From Pseudomonadota bacterium (GTDB lineage: Bacteria; Bdellovibrionota; FAC87; UBA2466): a DNA stretch of 16,856 nucleotides. Position numbers and translations under genes: made by a program. The DNA is taken from NCBI GenBank assembly GCA_043767805.1, contig JAYUGC010000031.1:1-16856 (forward strand). Direction: 5' to 3'. Under the pieces are notes generated by a model. It searched no databases. It saw only the letters and a list, made by a program, of their open reading frames with translations, and was not told where the DNA came from. Below are positions 5,134 through 16,856 of the stretch, in pieces; position 1 is the stretch's first letter, and each line of letters opens with the position of its first letter.

Positions 5134-6533
5134 CCTTCTTGAATCCCCCCGATGGTGGCTTGGCAACGGATGTAAGGCCCGCCGGCGTCGACTTTAGCGG
5201 GTTGTCCTTTGCCGCAATAACCTGATCCCAAATCCAATTTGAACTCTCGCGATACGGCATCCACCGTCGAGAGCACTTCGAAAGCTTGGCCGGAGATAGT
5301 GGCCCCGCGGTAAAGCTCAGTGAGCTTCCCGTTCTTGATCCGCTGCACTTTTTGAGCGCCGAACATGAACTCCCCCGTCGCATCCGCTTGTCCGCCAAGC
5401 GGGCAATCCACGAACCAGCCGTCTTCCGTCGAAGCGATGATGTCCTCGAGAGACTGGGTGCCCGCCTTGAGATAAGTGTTCCGCATCCGGATGAGGGGCT
5501 CGTCATTGTAGAGCCACGCGCGAGCGCTTCCCGTTGGCTCCACGCCGTAGAGCGCCGCGGACTCGCGGTTGTGAAGATACGATTCGAGAATGCCGTCCCG
5601 GATGATGACGGTGTTTTGGGTCGCGACTCCTTCATCATCGACGAGCAAGTCGCCGCCGCCGAACGGCACGCCGTCAACTTGGCCGCCATCACACATCGTC
5701 ACAAGAGAGCTCGCCACGCGCTTACCGATTTTTCCGGCGGCGACGGAGCCCGAGAGGACGAAGTCCGCCTCCACGGTGTGGCCAATGGCTTCATGACAAA
5801 GAATGCCGACCATCGCGGGAGAAAGAATGAGGGTCGCTTTACCTCCCGGGGTGTGAGGGGCGTTCAAAAGATCGACGGCAAGTCTTCCGGCGAGCTCCGA
5901 CATCTGGCCCACCGAGTTCTCGGAGAAGAGGCACTCCCAAGTGCCCGTCTTGCCGACGTGATGGCTTCCCGTGCTCATCTCACCGTCTTTGCCGGCAATA
6001 GCCGTCAGTCTGAACTCGCTGCGAGCGAGCTGGGAGACGGCGTTGGCTCCGTCGGTGGTGACCACGATCTTGTCTTCGAAAATCTCGTTGTAACCGCAGA
6101 CCGCGCTATGAATCGAAGGGGAAAGGGATCTGGTTTGGCTCTCGGCCTTCACCACCGCGCTCAGTTTCTGTTCGAGCGTCATGGACTGGAGCTGCTCGTA
6201 GCCCGCCAGCGTAAACGTGCCGTGGGCGAGCTTCGTTTTGGGAAGATCTTTGACGGCCGCCTTCTTCATTTGGCTGAGGGATTTCGCGCACTCGATGGCG
6301 CGCTTCAAAGTTTTGTCGAGAGCTTCGGAAGAAAGATCCGAAGTGGAGGAGAATCCCCACGCTCCGTCGACCAGCGCGCGGATGCCTACCCCCGAGGTCA
6401 GCGAGGATTTCGCCTGTTTGACCAACCCCTTTTGGACTTGGAGGGACTGGTTCTTTCGCCGATGAAAACGGGCTTCCGCCCAGCTCGGCGAGTTTTCCAT
6501 TAACTTTTGCAAGCGTTCGGCGAGTGACTTCAT
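5130..6533 (-). CDS. tldD: TldD metalloprotease subunit
   Basis: 467 aa with GVGIRALVDGAWGF, metal motif HEAIGH, DDEG, RMRNTY and C-terminal CGKGQ. Confidence 0.95.
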   Translation of the reverse strand: MKSLAERLQKLMENSPSWAEARFHRRKNQSLQVQKGLVKQAKSSLTSGVGIRALVDGAWGFSSTSDLSSEALDKTLKRAIECAKSLSQMKKAAVKDLPKTKLAHGTFTLAGYEQLQSMTLEQKLSAVVKAESQTRSLSPSIHSAVCGYNEIFEDKIVVTTDGANAVSQLARSEFRLTAIAGKDGEMSTGSHHVGKTGTWECLFSENSVGQMSELAGRLAVDLLNAPHTPGGKATLILSPAMVGILCHEAIGHTVEADFVLSGSVAAGKIGKRVASSLVTMCDGGQVDGVPFGGGDLLVDDEGVATQNTVIIRDGILESYLHNRESAALYGVEPTGSARAWLYNDEPLIRMRNTYLKAGTQSLEDIIASTEDGWFVDCPLGGQADATGEFMFGAQKVQRIKNGKLTELYRGATISGQAFEVLSTVDAVSREFKLDLGSGYCGKGQPAKVDAGGPYIRCQATIGGIQEG

Positions 6534-7237
6534 GGTTCGGACCTCAATTTGAAAAAGAAGACCGCGAGGAGCGGGCTAATCAAAAGACTCATCCCCAAGC
6601 TGAGCAAGAACTGCGTCGCCAATGCCAAGGCGGAACCGATGGCGGGCGTGGGTGCCATCGCACCTATCCGGACGCCGAGATCGGAAGCCGAAAAGGCTAA
6701 TCCAAATTCCATTATCATCAGAAGGCCGGCAATTCCCAGCATCTGCCACAAAGCTTTCTTAACGAGTTGCCTCGACCGGTGGAAGAGCACGCTCATGGGA
6801 GCGTCGGGAGATTCCATGGCCAAGAAGGGAGCAAACCCATAGATGGCGGAAAAATAAACCGCGACAGGAATGAGAATGGGGGCGAACGCTCCGGGAATCG
6901 TGAGCAAAGCCAGCACGATTCCCGCCGGAAACCATTTCTTCCAGCGCCGTAAGGACTCGAGGGCGGCGGTCTTGGCGCTCACGGGCAGGGCCCCCACTTC
7001 GCCGCGAACCAACGCAAACGTCGCGGTGCTGGAGAGGGTGGAAAGAAACACAAAGATTGGAAAGACGATCGAAAGGATTAAGATGAGCTGAGTGTTGTTT
7101 TGAATCCCTTCCGAAGGCGCGGGCTCGACGAGAGAAGTCGCGGCCACCGGAAGCTGGAGAAGAAACAGCGCGCCGGCGCGCTGGCGTAAGATTCCTACGG
7201 TCCGCCCTAGTACGGAAGTCTGACTTTGGGATGACAC
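6530..7237 (-). CDS. Hypothetical integral membrane protein (~6 TM), coupled to tldD
   Basis: 235 aa with several hydrophobic segments and a GTG start. Its TGA overlaps the tldD ATG. Confidence 0.8.
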   Translation of the reverse strand: MSSQSQTSVLGRTVGILRQRAGALFLLQLPVAATSLVEPAPSEGIQNNTQLILILSIVFPIFVFLSTLSSTATFALVRGEVGALPVSAKTAALESLRRWKKWFPAGIVLALLTIPGAFAPILIPVAVYFSAIYGFAPFLAMESPDAPMSVLFHRSRQLVKKALWQMLGIAGLLMIMEFGLAFSASDLGVRIGAMAPTPAIGSALALATQFLLSLGMSLLISPLLAVFFFKLRSEP

Positions 7238-10251: not shown

Positions 10252-11934
10252 ATGTTTGGGTGGAGAAGTCTCTTTTTGGTTGCCGCGCTCCTGGGCACCT
10301 TAAGTTGCGGCAAACGGGATATGGGACAAGTCCAGCTCACGGGAGGGTCTGGAGCGGGCCATCCCAGCGCCGATGAGGCGGGCCGGGCGAGCTACCGTTA
10401 CGCCTTTTCCGCCCAAGTCCTCGATGAAACGACCGGCCTCGCGGTCCCGAACTTCGCCGTTACCTTACTTTCCCAGGACGGCGCGGTAAGCGCTTTGCTT
10501 AACGCCATGGGCGACAAGACCGGCGTCTTCCACATTTCCCGTAACCCCGCGGCGGGAGACCTGGCCTTCAAGGCCATTCCAATTTTGCTCACGGCGGTCG
10601 GTCATAAACCAGTGGTCCAATTCGTAGACGTCGGCGCCGATTGTTTGGCGGGCCAATGCCCGGGCTCCAGACCTCTCGCCATTCACTTGGCAATCGCCGG
10701 CGCCGCGGTCTCCTTTGCCAAGGAAGCTTTTGCTCCGCTGGCGGCCACCCAGAAGATTAACGCCGTGGGAACGGCGCCTCTGTTTCAAGCTCTCATTAAG
10801 AGCGGCAAGATGGATCCAGAGATCCAAAAACTTTTCTCCACGGCGAAAAACGGCGACACGCTCAGCAATATCTTGATTGTCCTGAACGGCAGTCATGGGG
10901 GCGCCGATTTGGCGCAAGCTTTATTGAACGGCGCGAACGCCGAGAAATTAAAGGGCCTCACTACGGGGCTCGGCACCATCGCGGCGCTCCTCGTTCCTAT
11001 GCTTTCCAGTTCCCATCCGGATGCATCGGCGGCCATGATCGCGGTCAACGCGCTCTTGCCCTACCTCACGCCCATTCTGCAGAAGGCGGAGAACAAAGGG
11101 CCGCTCATGAGCGTGCTTACGACGTTACTCGCGGACCCGAACTCCCAGCAGAACCTGGTGAATCTGATTCAGTCGCTTTCTAAGAACGGCGACAAGACGA
11201 AGACTCTCCAGTTCGCCATGGCGACCTTTCTGCCCCTCTTACAAAGCTTGATCGCGAAAAAAGTCCCGCCGGCGACCGCCAGTCCCTTCGAGACCCTTCT
11301 CGCGAAGTCCGTGCTCGATCCGAAATTCGCGGCGCTCGTTGCTTCTCTCGCGGATAAAAATATCGTGAAGGACGAGAAGGTCTCTCTGCTTCTCTCCTAC
11401 CTGCAGCCTCTCGTGCAGGCTTTGAGCGGAAAAGCGGCTCCGGAGATCGCTTATCTCTTCAATCAGCTCATTCAAGACGGCGGGCTACAGAAGCTGAAAG
11501 ACTTCGCGAAGGATGGAACGGCCCAAGAAAAGTTTGCGCAGCTCATTCCCTATATCGAGCCTTTGGTTAAAGGATTGAACTCGGCCGAAGCGACGAAGCT
11601 CGCGGAAGCGCTCTTACCGATCCTGGCGTCCTCGAATCCGGCGGCGGCCGTGCGAGACATTCTCGTGAAGGCGGCGGCGGGCGGCAGCCAGGCGGGTCAA
11701 GTCATCGCGGCCCTTTTGCCGGCCTTGGAACCTCTCTTGAAAGAAACCTCTCCCGGCAAGCAGGTACTTTCCGCGCAGTTGCTTCAAGGTCTCTTGAACG
11801 GAGACTTCACTGGAATTCAGGTTACGAAGGACCTTCAAGGCTTGCCGGCGGTGATCGTGTCGGGGCAAGCGAAGGACATCTTCAAGCTTCTTCAATTGCC
11901 GAACGTGGATAAGGCCGTCGCTTTGACGCTCTAA
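10252..11934 (+). CDS. Hypothetical lipoprotein with an N-terminal beta domain and Ala/Leu-rich helical repeats
   Basis: 560-aa ORF with GAGGG SD at 10243-10247 and a signal peptide ending LLGTLS-C19. QVLDETTGLAVPNFAVTL resembles the start of a carboxypeptidase-regulatory-like domain. Confidence 0.8.
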   Translation: MFGWRSLFLVAALLGTLSCGKRDMGQVQLTGGSGAGHPSADEAGRASYRYAFSAQVLDETTGLAVPNFAVTLLSQDGAVSALLNAMGDKTGVFHISRNPAAGDLAFKAIPILLTAVGHKPVVQFVDVGADCLAGQCPGSRPLAIHLAIAGAAVSFAKEAFAPLAATQKINAVGTAPLFQALIKSGKMDPEIQKLFSTAKNGDTLSNILIVLNGSHGGADLAQALLNGANAEKLKGLTTGLGTIAALLVPMLSSSHPDASAAMIAVNALLPYLTPILQKAENKGPLMSVLTTLLADPNSQQNLVNLIQSLSKNGDKTKTLQFAMATFLPLLQSLIAKKVPPATASPFETLLAKSVLDPKFAALVASLADKNIVKDEKVSLLLSYLQPLVQALSGKAAPEIAYLFNQLIQDGGLQKLKDFAKDGTAQEKFAQLIPYIEPLVKGLNSAEATKLAEALLPILASSNPAAAVRDILVKAAAGGSQAGQVIAALLPALEPLLKETSPGKQVLSAQLLQGLLNGDFTGIQVTKDLQGLPAVIVSGQAKDIFKLLQLPNVDKAVALTL

Positions 11935-12945: not shown

Positions 12946-13743
12946 TCACGAGAAGGACGGAAAGAAAAAGGGAAGCAGCTCGGTCTTCCACATCCAGTAG
13001 GTGGCCGCCGCCCCCGCGAGAAAAGGCCCGAAAGGAATGCTCGCTTTGAGGTCCTTCTTTTGAAAGAACATGACTCCGACGCCGACGATACTGCCTATGC
13101 CCGTCGATAAGATGATGACGATGAGAATGGACTGGTACCCCAGCCATGCCCCGATCATGGCTAGGAGTTTCACGTCTCCGCCGCCCAAGCCCTCGCGTTT
13201 GGCGACCATCTCGTAAAAATAGGCGATGGCGAAGAATATCCCGCCTCCCGAGACGGCGCCGATGACCGAGTCATGCCAGGAGATATCGCCGGTGAGCAGC
13301 GTGGCAAGTATTCCCAGAACGATTCCGGAAAGACTGAGTTCGTCGGGAATGATGCGATGGTGGAGATCGATGACGGAAATGATGAGCAGATAGGAAAGAA
13401 AAACTCCGTAGCAAAGCATCCTCGAGTCGGGGCCGTAACGATTGGCGACGCCTAGCCATATCAAGCCGGTGCAGAGCTCGACTAACGGATACTCCACGGA
13501 AATACTTTTCGCGCAGTCGCGGCACTTTCCGCGCAGCCACAGGTAACTGAAGACCGGAATGTTGTGGTACCAGCGGATGGGCGTCCGGCATTGCGGGCAC
13601 CGCGAGCCGCCCCGGACGATGGACTCGTCGAGGGGAAGCCGGACGATGACGACGTTGAAAAAGCTCCCGAGGATGAGTCCCAATAGAAAGGAAAAGGGGA
13701 GGAGCAGAGTGGGCTCGTTCAGAATGTCCTGCCAGGTTGTCAC
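12946..13743 (-). CDS. pilD: Prepilin peptidase / N-methyltransferase (A24)
   Basis: GSFFNVVIVRLP, CPQC and CRDC zinc motifs, IDLHHRIIPD, GGGDVKL, IPFGPFLA. The GTG start overlaps the upstream TGA. Confidence 0.96.
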   Translation of the reverse strand: MTTWQDILNEPTLLLPFSFLLGLILGSFFNVVIVRLPLDESIVRGGSRCPQCRTPIRWYHNIPVFSYLWLRGKCRDCAKSISVEYPLVELCTGLIWLGVANRYGPDSRMLCYGVFLSYLLIISVIDLHHRIIPDELSLSGIVLGILATLLTGDISWHDSVIGAVSGGGIFFAIAYFYEMVAKREGLGGGDVKLLAMIGAWLGYQSILIVIILSTGIGSIVGVGVMFFQKKDLKASIPFGPFLAGAAATYWMWKTELLPFFFPSFS

Positions 13744-14507
13744 GCAGCGATGTCTTTATGGTTGAAGCAGACGACCGCCGCAAAGAGATAGAAGGTCACG
13801 CAAATCACGGCATATCCGCACGCTAGCGAGAGCTCGTTCCAGCCGATGGTGAGCCCGTAAGAGGCCATGCTCTTCATGTTGAAGATTTCCAGGTCCGGTA
13901 CCAAGGCCTTGGTGAAACTCCAGACGTAGGTCGCAAACGAGTCGCCGATATTCTCATTCACGCGATCGCGCACATGCCCGACGGCGAAGAAGCAGAGAGT
14001 GACGGCGGCGGCGGTGATGGCGCCTGAGTTCACGGCGAAGAGATAGGTAATCGCCGTGAGCGTCGCGCACTCGAACACGATCATCGTCATGGCCTGAAAC
14101 AGAGCGGTCGCGGAAAAATTCCCTTCGAAGCGGGCGCAAGTTAGGTAGGCGATGACGCCCATGAGCGCAATCACCGCGGTTTGCACGATGACTTGCCCGA
14201 GGTACTTACCCACTAGAAATACCCAGCGGGAAACGGGCTTTGAAAGCAGCATGTAGATGGAGCCGCTGTTCATTTCTTTGTGAAACAGGCTGATGCCCAT
14301 GAATACCGCGAAAAGAATCATGGCCATTTGAGTGCCGCCCAGCATGAAGTCTAGTAGAAGTTTCGACTGTTCGGCATAGGAAAACTGGCTCAAGAGAACG
14401 CTCAAGGCCATCGCGGCCAAGGCGAACGAGACGAGCAGGTAGAAGACCTTTTCGTAGAGGAGCTCCCGCACCGTGACCCAGGCAATTCGCAAGCATGCGG
14501 CAATCAT
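13740..14507 (-). CDS. pilI: ABC transporter permease, PilI-like
   Basis: Multi-TM protein with EMNSGSIYMLLSKPVSRWVFLVGKYLG. It lies between the pilH-like ATPase and pilD, as in Myxococcus pilGHID. Confidence 0.88.
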   Translation of the reverse strand: MIAACLRIAWVTVRELLYEKVFYLLVSFALAAMALSVLLSQFSYAEQSKLLLDFMLGGTQMAMILFAVFMGISLFHKEMNSGSIYMLLSKPVSRWVFLVGKYLGQVIVQTAVIALMGVIAYLTCARFEGNFSATALFQAMTMIVFECATLTAITYLFAVNSGAITAAAVTLCFFAVGHVRDRVNENIGDSFATYVWSFTKALVPDLEIFNMKSMASYGLTIGWNELSLACGYAVICVTFYLFAAVVCFNHKDIAA

Positions 14508-15472
14508 GGCGTCGCCTCCGGAAGCGGATTAGCAATCAGCGGAGCGTCCCCAAAGAGCGCCTCCTCCAGAGTGCGTCTGTGGGAGTTCACGCCCACGACT
14601 TTGACGCCCTCTCGGCGGATGGCTTCCAGCTCGCGCATGAAATTCTCGGTACCGTCGATGGTGACGATGAGGCCGATCGGCCTGGTCTCGGTGGCGTGCG
14701 CGCTTTTCAGGCGCTCGCGCAAGTCAGGCGCCGGATCGCGCACGATGAGGTCGAAGCGTTCTTCGTTATTCACCAGGAGGTCCTCGATGGGGCAGTAGCT
14801 CCCCAGCTTTCCTTTGCGGAGGAGAGCGACATCGGAGCAGAGCATCTCCACGTCGTTCAGGATGTGGGTGCTGAACAAGATGGTGGCGTCGGGAATTTCC
14901 GTGTGGACGCGTTGGATGAGCTGACGGATCTCGAAGCGGCCCAGGGGATCGAGTCCGCTCATGGGCTCATCGAACACCAAGATCCTCGGCGAATTGAGAA
15001 GGGCCTGAGCGATCCCTAAGCGCTGGGTCATGCCTTTGCTGTACCCTTGAACGCGATCGTCGCTGGCGTGGGCAAGACCGACCAGCTCGAGAAGCTCTTC
15101 GCTCTTCTTTTTCAAAGGCGCCGTCTCGAGCCCCAGGAGCTTGCCGTAGTAAAAGAGGACTTCGCGGCCGGTGAGAAACTTTTGGAACCGCGGATTCTCC
15201 GGAAGGTAGCCGAGAAAGGAACGGGCCGAGCGCTCGTCCGAGGGCACGCCGCAGATGAGAATCTGGCCGTGCGTGGGCCTCAGAAATCCCATTAGCATCT
15301 TGAGTGTGGTGGACTTACCCGATCCGTTCGGTCCGAGCAATCCCACTACCTTGCCTTTTGGAATCGAAAGGGTGAGGTTTTCCACGGCGGTCTTTTTCTT
15401 ATGCACGCCGAGGCGGAAAACCTTGGTGACGTCCGTAATTGAGATCACTTCCGAAGCCGCGATTTCAGTCAT
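14504..15472 (-). CDS. pilH: ABC transporter ATP-binding protein, PilH-like
   Basis: Walker A GPNGSGKST, signature YSKGMTQR, Walker B LVFDEPMSGLDP, H-loop STHIL. Confidence 0.92.
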   Translation of the reverse strand: MTEIAASEVISITDVTKVFRLGVHKKKTAVENLTLSIPKGKVVGLLGPNGSGKSTTLKMLMGFLRPTHGQILICGVPSDERSARSFLGYLPENPRFQKFLTGREVLFYYGKLLGLETAPLKKKSEELLELVGLAHASDDRVQGYSKGMTQRLGIAQALLNSPRILVFDEPMSGLDPLGRFEIRQLIQRVHTEIPDATILFSTHILNDVEMLCSDVALLRKGKLGSYCPIEDLLVNNEERFDLIVRDPAPDLRERLKSAHATETRPIGLIVTIDGTENFMRELEAIRREGVKVVGVNSHRRTLEEALFGDAPLIANPLPEATP

Positions 15473-15479
15473 GATGGTC

Positions 15480-16412
15480 TCAAGTCCCTTTTCTGCCGTA
15501 GATGCCCGATTGCTCGAGAGCCGGCTGTGGCTTTACGGGAACAATTTTCTTTTCCGCCGAATCGTATCGAAACGAGTGTACTTCCGCAAACAGCGGCACA
15601 ACGTCTTCGGGAATTTCCGCCGTGGTGATGACCGAGGCGATCTCGCGGGTCTGGCTGATGAAGTGCGAGCGAATGTCGTCGATGCCCTTCGGCTCGCTGT
15701 GTTTTTGCTTGCGGAAGCCCTCGAGCGCCGCCTGCCAGCTCGCCTTTTGCAAGGCGTAGACGAGGCTGCGGATGCGCGACAGCAAGCGGGCTTTCCCGTC
15801 GTTGTCGCGCATTGCCGGCACGAGCGAGACTGCAAGGCGAAGCGCCTGGGCGAGGGTGCCCGTTTCACTCAGTAGCCGGATGCCTAAAGAGGTAAGCCAG
15901 GTGGGCGCTCCTTCGAGGCTCGCCGCCGTGAGAATTTCCCGCGCCGCCGGCTTGTACTGCTGCATTTCGAAATAGAGGTGATAGCCGAGCGAGTAGTGGG
16001 AGCGCCAGTTGTTGGGGTAGTAGCGCACCCATTTTTCCAAAAGTATCCGCGCGCCTTCGGCGTCTCGGAGAAATACGGAAAGAAAAGCCGCTCCAAAAGG
16101 GTAGGCCCCCTGGAAATTACGATCGAGACTGGTGATGGCGTCTAGCTGTGCGAACTCCCAGCTTACTTTTCCGGGCTCAGCGTCTTTGTGGCGTGCTTTG
16201 TCGAGAAGCCGGAGCCAAAGCAGATCGGTTATGACGAAGTCGAAACCCAGGCTATAGCGTTTTAAAGAATCGGCGTGGTAGCGAGCGGCTTGGGCGTAAA
16301 GGCTTGGCGCTCTTTCGTCGAGGTTTCCGAGATGGCGCTCCGAGACGTGTTTAGCCGCGATTAAGCAAAAACCGATCCCTAAGGAAGAGAACCAAAAAAG
16401 GAAGCGTTTCAT
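15480..16412 (-). CDS. pilG: PilG-like (Myxococcus-type) TPR-containing pilus accessory protein
   Basis: N-terminal TM (MKRFLFWFSSLGIGFCLIAA), LGFDFVITDLLWLR, ITSLD and TPR-like WRSHYSLGYHLYF. It sits directly before pilHID. ATG 16412 is preferred over the track's TTG at 16502, whose extension is low-complexity and lies in an inverted repeat. Confidence 0.78.
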   Translation of the reverse strand: MKRFLFWFSSLGIGFCLIAAKHVSERHLGNLDERAPSLYAQAARYHADSLKRYSLGFDFVITDLLWLRLLDKARHKDAEPGKVSWEFAQLDAITSLDRNFQGAYPFGAAFLSVFLRDAEGARILLEKWVRYYPNNWRSHYSLGYHLYFEMQQYKPAAREILTAASLEGAPTWLTSLGIRLLSETGTLAQALRLAVSLVPAMRDNDGKARLLSRIRSLVYALQKASWQAALEGFRKQKHSEPKGIDDIRSHFISQTREIASVITTAEIPEDVVPLFAEVHSFRYDSAEKKIVPVKPQPALEQSGIYGRKGT

Positions 16413-16462
16413 GGGGGGTAGATGATCCGCTTCTATTGTACTGGGAGTAGGTACGGAGGGGG

Positions 16463-16591
16463 AAAGAAGAAAGTTGAGGCGAGAGGCGGGAAAAACCAAC
16501 AACCGTCGGCAACAGGTTTTGGGGGGTTGAATGGAATTGGGAAGGTCTAGCTGGCCTCCCGAATCCTCATCGCCTCAACTCAATCTTCTTT
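16463..16591 (-). repeat. Long imperfect inverted repeat (rod-like RNA hairpin)
   Basis: AGTTGAGGCGA (16472-16482) / TCGCCTCAACT (16570-16580) is a perfect 11-bp pair, flanked in register by AAAGAAGA/TCTTCTTT, GAGG/CCTC and CGGGA/TCCCG. Confidence 0.85.
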
Positions 16592-16653
16592 TGTCGCTAC
16601 GGCTACTACTTCTACTGAATCAGCTTCCGCTGCCGTTGCTACGAGACGCCCTA

Positions 16654-16671
16654 TTGCAGGGTGTATGCCAA
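16654..16671 (-). promoter_or_regulatory. Sigma54 (-24/-12) promoter
   Basis: Minus strand TTGGCATACACCCTGCAA has GG-N10-GC spacing and is close to TGGCAC-N5-TTGCW. An AT-rich tract with an IHF-like TATCAATTGGATG (16701-16713) lies just upstream. Confidence 0.72.
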
Positions 16672-16856
16672 CTGTGCATGGTTTAAATATAAATGAATAT
16701 TATCAATTGGATGACTAAAATTTCGCCTTCTGAAAAGAGTTCGGCGCTTCGGCGAAATGAAGGGTAGCAGTGTCTCATTTTGGAACCGGTTAAGGCCACT
16801 TATTAAATTCAGTATTGTTAAATACTTACCTCGGGTGCGCTCCTCCCTTTTTGGAA

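Follow-up and report, generated by a model that had tools for sequence, protein, structure and literature searches.

The contig JAYUGC010000031.1, from an uncultured member of the Bdellovibrionota, encodes a structured RNA immediately upstream of the operon for the prepilin peptidase PilD. This RNA is real, conserved and previously uncatalogued, and is specific to one order of uncultured Bdellovibrionota. It forms a long rod closed by a near-invariant apical loop, and is preceded by a predicted sigma-54 promoter. The window analysed here is this entire 16,856-bp contig (C31), part of a draft genome of 4.52 Mb in 204 contigs with 57.9% G+C. Coordinates are window positions, and the RNA element, its promoter and the pilD operon all lie on the minus strand. 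Read along that strand from the contig end, the elements follow in the order palindrome, A+T-rich spacer, sigma-54 box, 53-nucleotide (nt) segment, rod, tail, TACAAT box and ATG (Table 1).

An earlier note on this DNA had described a sigma-54 box on the minus strand predicting a start near 16644, the lack of a pilin open reading frame (ORF) before pilG, a long rod with named helices closing a C/U-rich loop, G-U pairs favoring the minus strand, and a TACAAT box at 16440-16435. Each of these observations was borne out. The two interpretations that it offered, a sigma-54-dependent RNA of about 200 nt or a structured leader, are the two leading readings after testing, with the sigma-54 dependence predicted. 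Stem covariation, an Rfam search and transcript data were named there as checks; the first two came out in its favor, and contigs from RNA libraries lie inside the predicted transcript, as described below.

The minus-strand RNA from 16650 to 16413 has a predicted folding energy of -76.7 kcal/mol (z = -4.19), and none of 200 shuffled sequences folded to so low an energy; for the plus strand z is -1.99, and 7 of 200 shuffles do equally well. The minimum free energy (MFE) structure contains all of the pairings listed in the earlier note, with helices formed by AAAGAAGA/UCUUCUUU, GAGUUGAGGCGA/UCGCCUCAAC, GAGG/CCUC, and GGGAGGCCAGC with GUUGGUUUUUCCC, including G-U pairs. The block in the apical loop is C-rich, has only two G residues and is predicted to be single-stranded. 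The segment 5' of the rod varies among relatives in sequence and length, and usually forms a hairpin of its own in their folds. The tail that follows the rod measures 16-45 nt in the 20 relatives with a TAnAAT box and contains one to six G residues. The RNA stretch is single-copy in its own genome. Inspection by eye found no conserved pseudoknot between the loop and either the 5' segment or the tail. An alternative P3 pairing, CCAUU/GAUGG, was rejected, as the middle base of GA-N-GG varies freely and CCAUUC is constant. In three loci of one genus (L014, L019 and L028) a long 5' hairpin leads into UUUUUU directly before the rod; this lineage-specific feature resembles an intrinsic terminator placed after the sigma-54 start and ahead of the rod.

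The corresponding loci of relatives were located by searching 41 related genomes with the 310-amino-acid (aa) protein encoded downstream of the RNA; the loci were found through a neighboring protein and were thus not selected by the RNA itself. The protein was matched in 33 genomes, among them all 24 others of the window's family and three of four from the sister family. Thirty loci were returned, of which four were cut by contig ends and two came from other families, leaving 24 for comparison. A loop block close to UUCCAUUCAACCCCCCAAAACCUGUUGCCGA is found in all 24, between 90 and 240 nt upstream of the protein start, and it is near-invariant across loci where the protein is only 35-72% identical. 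When folded singly, every one of the 24 relatives forms a long hairpin with this block at its apex and with a stem that differs in sequence; examples picked by eye from these folds are GAGUUGAGGCGA, UUGAGAGAGGGUU, GGCUGAGACUGG and UUGGCGAGAGAG.

Alignment with MAFFT followed by RNAalifold gave no consensus structure because the stems are out of register; this route was dropped and covariance-model alignments were used instead. The first model was built from the window and its closest relative on the MFE structure of the window, and all of its hits were aligned. In the resulting 29 distinct sequences, 89.0% of cells hold standard pairs, compared with 36.3-48.7% when the 3' partners are slid by one to three columns. 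Changes on both sides are seen in 40 of the 42 pairs, and the observed values were reached in none of 500 shuffles. A second model, extended to 49 distinct sequences with loci from pattern scans of genome and metagenome collections, gave 88.0% paired cells against 36.6-48.0% for the slid partners; here, too, both sides had changed in 40 of 42 pairs. The stem therefore covaries in both sets. Over the 29 sequences G-U or U-G pairs occupy 119 cells and A-C or C-A combinations only 31, an excess of wobble pairs which indicates that the RNA and the pilD operon are read the same way.

Of 151 genomes of the phylum scanned with the second model, 24 gave a match, in each case exactly one. They comprise all 20 sampled from the window's family (f1), all three of the sister family f2 and, counted separately, the window's own genome; no match was found among the 127 genomes searched from 23 other families. 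The pattern scans yielded 53 loci, 49 of them RNA-bearing and many from the same genomes as the first set. The matches at L044, L101 (the same as L114) and L121 were discarded as chance occurrences, lying inside long ORFs and lacking a rod. In 47 of the RNA-bearing loci from these scans the RNA is immediately followed, on its own strand, by the 310-aa gene; the remaining two loci are truncated at contig ends. At locus L097, in genome G025, the pilGHI-like genes are missing, and the palindrome, box and RNA are kept directly upstream of pilD.

No family of Rfam 15 matches any part of the window at gathering scores. With the threshold relaxed to E<=10, the region 16380-16856 gives six hits of 11-17 bits, all far below their thresholds and at chance level; the models concerned are eukaryotic microRNA, U6, small nucleolar RNA and long non-coding RNA families and one CRISPR direct repeat, with no bacterial families among them. 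The portions available to us of the literature on sigma-54, RpoN and small or structured RNAs in Bdellovibrio and the Bdellovibrionota contain no description of such an RNA.

All 24 relatives have a GG-N10-GC box in the same position, which predicts a start 89-148 nt ahead of the loop core. Upstream of it lies an imperfect palindrome. At 22 of 24 loci a copy matching at least 8 of the 10 specified positions stands 68-169 nt before the box, as against 22 of 480 background windows, a comparison that is partly circular, as the consensus was derived from the same loci that were scored. An enhancer-binding protein presumably binds at the palindrome, and the layout is that of a textbook activator-dependent sigma-54 promoter, as predicted from sequence. 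The genome encodes one rpoN and about 19 genes with Sigma54_activat matches over the cut-off. Elsewhere in this genome the palindrome has only weak candidates and a sole perfect copy, GTCCCATTTTGGAAC, which is intergenic near position 28659 of contig C193, with no sigma-54 box recognized beside it. Between the palindrome and the box of the window an inverted repeat, TTTCGCC ... GGCGAAA, spans 16721-16757 on the minus strand; after it, at about 16715-16680, the sequence is very rich in A+T and might serve in DNA bending.

A second candidate promoter element stands on the other side of the rod. The TACAAT box of the window belongs to a conserved TAnAAT motif found 35-95 nt past the loop core in 21 of 24 loci, compared with 48 of 1155 background windows. 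The motif begins 16-45 nt after the rod and, judged by eye in 11 loci, lies 8-35 nt before the likely start codon. No Shine-Dalgarno sequence precedes the ATG at 16412 in the window. The closeness of TAnAAT to the start codon implies that an operon mRNA made from it would be leaderless or short-leadered.

The element is also present in RNA libraries. Metatranscriptomes from three studies (estuary, mine drainage and river) each contain one contig of 152-159 nt, 95-99% alike, and these cover 16459-16616, with a loose end reaching to about 16631. They thus fall inside the predicted transcript and stop short of its predicted start. No contig covers 16200-16412 or the region upstream of the box; the contigs come from related strains, so this absence is not evidence. 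One contig is bounded on both sides by letters that we take to resemble transposase-adapter remnants, which suggests a short insert.

Table 1. Positions of the RNA element, its putative control sites and the downstream operon in the window.
Feature	Position	Strand	Details
Palindromic enhancer-like site GTTCCAAAATGAGAC, imperfect, 15 bp	16772..16786	-	consensus GTNCCA-N3-TGGNAC; ~115 nt upstream of the box
Sigma-54 -24/-12 box TTGGCATACACCCTGCA, GG-N10-GC	16655..16671	-	GG at 16669/16668, GC at 16657/16656; predicted start ~16644
5' segment of the RNA, predicted	16592..16644	-	small hairpin in the window; start inferred from the -12 element
Rod, 129 nt	16463..16591	-	four stacked helices, 42 modelled pairs, closes the apical loop
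Apical-loop block UUCCAUUCAACCCCCCAAAACCUGUUGCCGA, 31 nt, near-invariant; presumed functional site	16506..16536	-	core motif in 24/24 loci
Tail after the rod, CCCCCUCCGUACCUACUCCCAG, 22 nt	16441..16462	-	C/U-rich, G-poor, from sequence
TACAAT, -10-like box	16435..16440	-	22 nt before ATG; candidate separate operon promoter
310-aa protein, family unassigned	15480..16412	-	ATG at 16412; "pilG-like" by position only
ATP-binding cassette (ABC) transporter ATPase	14504..15472	-	PF00005, E = 3e-31; pilH-like by position
ABC-2 type permease	13740..14507	-	PF12679, E = 7e-10; pilI-like by position
Prepilin peptidase PilD	12946..13743	-	PF06750, E = 1.5e-34; PF01478, E = 1e-23

The 310-aa protein has no match in Pfam or NCBIfam. 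Its 43 homologues are confined to the same clade, and the names retrieved for 11 of them are 'hypothetical protein' in ten cases and 'TPR repeat protein' in one. The label "pilG" is taken only from the order of the genes (one without assigned family, then ABC ATPase, ABC-2 permease and PilD), which fits; pilG, pilH and pilI are named as genes of the Myxococcus xanthus pil cluster (PMC6060248). The earlier note placed the RNA in the usual pilA position upstream of pilGHID. The gene order agrees with this placement; the identity of the first gene does not gain support from any family, and in relatives the RNA locus has as its 5' neighbors not pilS and pilR but a small membrane ORF of divergent orientation and a PepA-like gene. 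The membrane ORF encodes about 160-185 aa, which include a conserved G-[YF]-L-x-K-x-G motif, and is followed by the PepA-like aminopeptidase gene (for example L004 335-850 and L097 3-1106). This pair flanks the RNA promoter in most relatives and in the window would fall past the contig end; the upstream palindrome could also serve the divergent membrane-ORF gene.

Between the sigma-54 box and the ATG at 16412 there is no minus-strand ORF of at least 20 aa, except for two that enter the downstream region. The pilin motif (G|F-T-L-I-E) appears in no ORF of 16413-16671, and the loci of the relatives likewise have no ORF with this motif from the box to the pilG-like gene. Elsewhere in the same genome, C99:10114-10842 (locus L098) encodes a 242-aa type IV pilin candidate with an N_methyl motif; its promoter is a sigma-70-like TATAAT rather than a sigma-54 box, and its ribosome-binding site is strong. 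Convergent to it, C99:10924-12363 encodes an orphan NtrC-type response regulator (REC, sigma-54 AAA+ and HTH_8 domains) with no adjoining kinase; this regulator is a candidate for the activator of the RNA promoter.

The other genes of the window are Ffh/SRP54, an acyl-CoA dehydrogenase, a TldD/PmbA pair, an AAT/TPR protein, ExbB/ExbD and an NAD-dependent epimerase, together with two long ORFs without a Pfam or NCBIfam match, at 6530-7237 (minus strand, 235 aa) and 10252-11934 (plus strand, 560 aa). The contig terminates 185 nt upstream of the sigma-54 box, and the draft assemblies of several relatives break in or beside the RNA (G004 C145:1-43 and C53; L012, L015, L018 and L027). In G004 one contig stops inside the loop and another begins 73 nt before the 310-aa gene. 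Strain variation could account for these breaks, as could difficulty in assembling across the long hairpin or the C-run.

We propose, with middling confidence, that the element is a stand-alone, clade-specific small RNA (sRNA) of about 180 nt, transcribed from an activator-dependent sigma-54 promoter and working through its loop. An enhancer-binding protein on the palindrome (16786-16772) would activate sigma-54 RNA polymerase at the box (16671-16655). Transcription would begin at about 16644 and produce the variable 5' hairpin, followed by the 129-nt rod displaying the single-stranded 31-nt block. The stems vary freely provided that they pair, which casts the rod as a scaffold, and the invariance of the loop makes it the likely surface that contacts a conserved partner, either a protein or a G-rich RNA recognized by base pairing. 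The pilG-like/ABC/pilD operon would be driven by its own TAnAAT promoter, with a short leader or none. In this scheme we infer the dependence on sigma-54 and an activator, the transcript ends, the independence from the operon and the action through the loop; the covarying structure and its strand, the single copy per genome, the confinement to one clade, the conserved promoter elements and the occurrence in RNA libraries are observed. The conserved TAnAAT box, the position of the RNA-library contigs within the predicted transcript and the retention of the RNA at L097 despite the loss of the three pilGHI-like genes count for a separate unit.

A number of observations weigh against this proposal. 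A terminator scan detected no intrinsic terminator from the rod to the ORF, which leaves a discrete 3' end unexplained; a U-rich run at the base of the rod occurs only in the window and L002, the other tails beginning with mixed sequence, and the presence of Rho in the genome, together with the C-rich, G-poor tail, is only suggestive as regards the 3' end. No -35 match accompanies the TAnAAT motif that would serve the operon separately. The RNA-library contigs are about a read in length and derive from related strains; they do not show ends, strand or abundance, and the flanks may be too diverged for contigs to match. The covariance-model alignments were fitted to the structure of the model and pairing is thereby favored, so that the single-sequence folds of the 24 relatives serve as independent support. 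The constant position and strand upstream of the operon would look alike for a leader. Finally, a search for targets in trans in the window's genome, in which 4217 seed sites were scored with duplexfold, yielded no partner or target, as none of the sites stood out.

The same was true of more specific candidates for base pairing. Exact complements of 11-13 nt to the loop are not above estimated chance in number (about 45 for 11-mers, a rough estimate) and show no start-codon pattern. Pairing with tRNA or transfer-messenger RNA was rejected, with a best duplex of -31.4 kcal/mol compared with -35 to -40 kcal/mol for shuffled loops, as was pairing with the leader of the pilin candidate (C99:10114), which at -15.2 kcal/mol ranks 1353 of 1500 random windows. 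The codons for the Walker-A motif of the ABC ATPase (about 15336-15395) are often the best-scoring loop complement within the operon, as in L006 with the pairing UUUUGGGGG plus AAUGG; the mean z of -0.3 against shuffled loops over 23 loci is no better than that of the shuffled loops and thus reflects G-rich composition, and this site was also rejected. Since no base-pairing partner beats the controls, a protein partner or Rho loading is as likely as pairing with G-rich ribosome-binding sites. The partner may accordingly be a protein, Rho acting on the C-rich loop and tail, or such ribosome-binding sites. Hfq was not found in the genome, which is 100% complete by marker genes, and is probably not involved; CsrA and Rho are both encoded.

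The alternative that competes most directly with a stand-alone sRNA is a cis-acting 5' leader or attenuator, in which sigma-54 provides a conditional second promoter for the operon and the rod forms part of a long 5' untranslated region. A factor binding the loop, either a protein or Rho, the latter on the C-rich loop together with the tail, would then decide read-through or mRNA stability, and TAnAAT would supply basal expression. We regard this as possible, though we lean towards doubting it, and the two readings are not mutually exclusive. Every uncut RNA-bearing locus has the RNA on the same strand immediately upstream of the operon, in L097 directly before pilD, and the single copy per genome, the missing terminator and -35 element, and the C-rich, G-poor loop and tail in a genome that contains Rho are all as a leader would have them; the near-perfect duplex of about 45 bp would also suit processing by RNase III. 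On the other hand, we find no expression platform: there is no terminator/anti-terminator alternative and no Shine-Dalgarno sequence to sequester. With TAnAAT so close to the start codon the normal operon mRNA would start past the RNA, and an internal AUG without a Shine-Dalgarno sequence would probably be translated poorly from a read-through transcript. The RNA-library contigs, a weak indication, cover the rod and not the first 212 nt of the ORF.

Two further explanations would dispense with a functional RNA. If the element acted as DNA, the invariant 31 bp would bind a protein, whether as an operator or for recombination, with the flanking inverted repeat extruded as a cruciform or recognized as a palindrome. 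Its single copy per genome, its near-invariant core and the symmetry of the inverted repeat in DNA agree with such a role; we nevertheless consider it very unlikely, as the asymmetry of wobble pairs is expected for RNA and not for duplex DNA, the stems covary with pairing kept over 42 positions, the core is not palindromic, the conserved promoter points into the element, and the element occurs in RNA libraries. The stretch might instead lack any present function, being the decayed remnant of a pilA gene, or a hairpin arisen by chance, that follows a leftover promoter of the PilR type. Its position resembles the pilA slot of the M. xanthus pil cluster, and a separate pilin gene with a sigma-70-like promoter exists elsewhere in the genome. 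This explanation is contradicted by the conservation data and we think it extremely improbable: the loop is near-invariant beside a protein that has drifted so far, compensatory changes affect 40 of 42 pairs, translation of the conserved block gives a pilin-like sequence in no frame, and the stretch is kept in all 23 sampled genomes of the two families.

Bdellovibrionota are predators, and in cultured Bdellovibrio type IV pili are needed for prey attachment and entry. To our knowledge, almost nothing is known of regulatory RNAs in the uncultured relatives. We tentatively suggest, and think it rather doubtful, that the RNA represents a new class of riboregulator: a rod switched on by an enhancer-binding protein and sigma-54, whose loop captures a conserved partner (an RNA-binding protein, Rho or G-rich ribosome-binding sites) and which, having taken the promoter slot beside the pilus-assembly genes, couples an environmental or prey signal to pilus-dependent behavior without Hfq. 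Covariation, a conserved sigma-54 architecture and a fixed address beside pilD define the RNA family cleanly and make it suitable as a new Rfam entry. The constancy of the loop while the neighboring proteins drift to 35-45% identity points to a specific molecular partner, and hence to a tractable handle on signal-dependent control, which matters in a lineage without genetics.

Small RNAs transcribed by sigma-54 polymerase with a dedicated activator include Qrr of Vibrio (LuxO), GlmY/GlmZ (GlrR), CrcZ (CbrB) and Pxr of M. xanthus. Like Qrr, the RNA described here has a -24/-12 promoter, an upstream palindromic activator site with a 3-nt spacer, and an invariant single-stranded block presumed to be the working part. 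The Qrr RNAs are about 100 nt long, consist of several short hairpins with an intrinsic terminator and depend on Hfq, whereas this RNA consists of a single rod of 129 nt, is capped by a loop of about 35 nt and lacks a terminator, and Hfq was not detected in its genome. The comparison with Pxr, which the earlier note had drawn, holds as an analogy: both are non-coding RNAs with a sigma-54-type promoter from a formerly deltaproteobacterial lineage. It goes no further: the two differ in size, architecture and context (Pxr is not known to lie in the pil cluster), and no Rfam model matches even at E<=10, in a release, Rfam 15, that may or may not include a Pxr model. GlmY/GlmZ and CrcZ are likewise activator-dependent sigma-54 sRNAs, and some of these RNAs sequester a protein rather than base-pair, which would be a plausible mode for the invariant loop; they carry repeated short motifs or defined processing sites, in contrast to the single long C-rich loop seen here, and no homology to them was found.

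Outside the sigma-54 RNAs, 6S RNA (RF00013) is also rod-like, about 130-180 nt long and present in one copy per genome. It has a central bubble between two helical arms and is widespread, whereas the present RNA has a terminal loop and is confined to one order; with no central bubble and no 6S match even at E<=10, it is not 6S. The leaders of pnp, rnc and rho, which are cut by RNase III or read by Rho, resemble it in lying directly upstream of an operon, in the same orientation, and in combining an extended duplex with single-stranded stretches rich in C and poor in G. They are not known to have a 31-nt invariant loop, and here the RNA and the ORF are set apart by a conserved -10-like box. The RNA family thus adds a non-Hfq, non-terminator case to the short list of activator-dependent sigma-54 RNAs.

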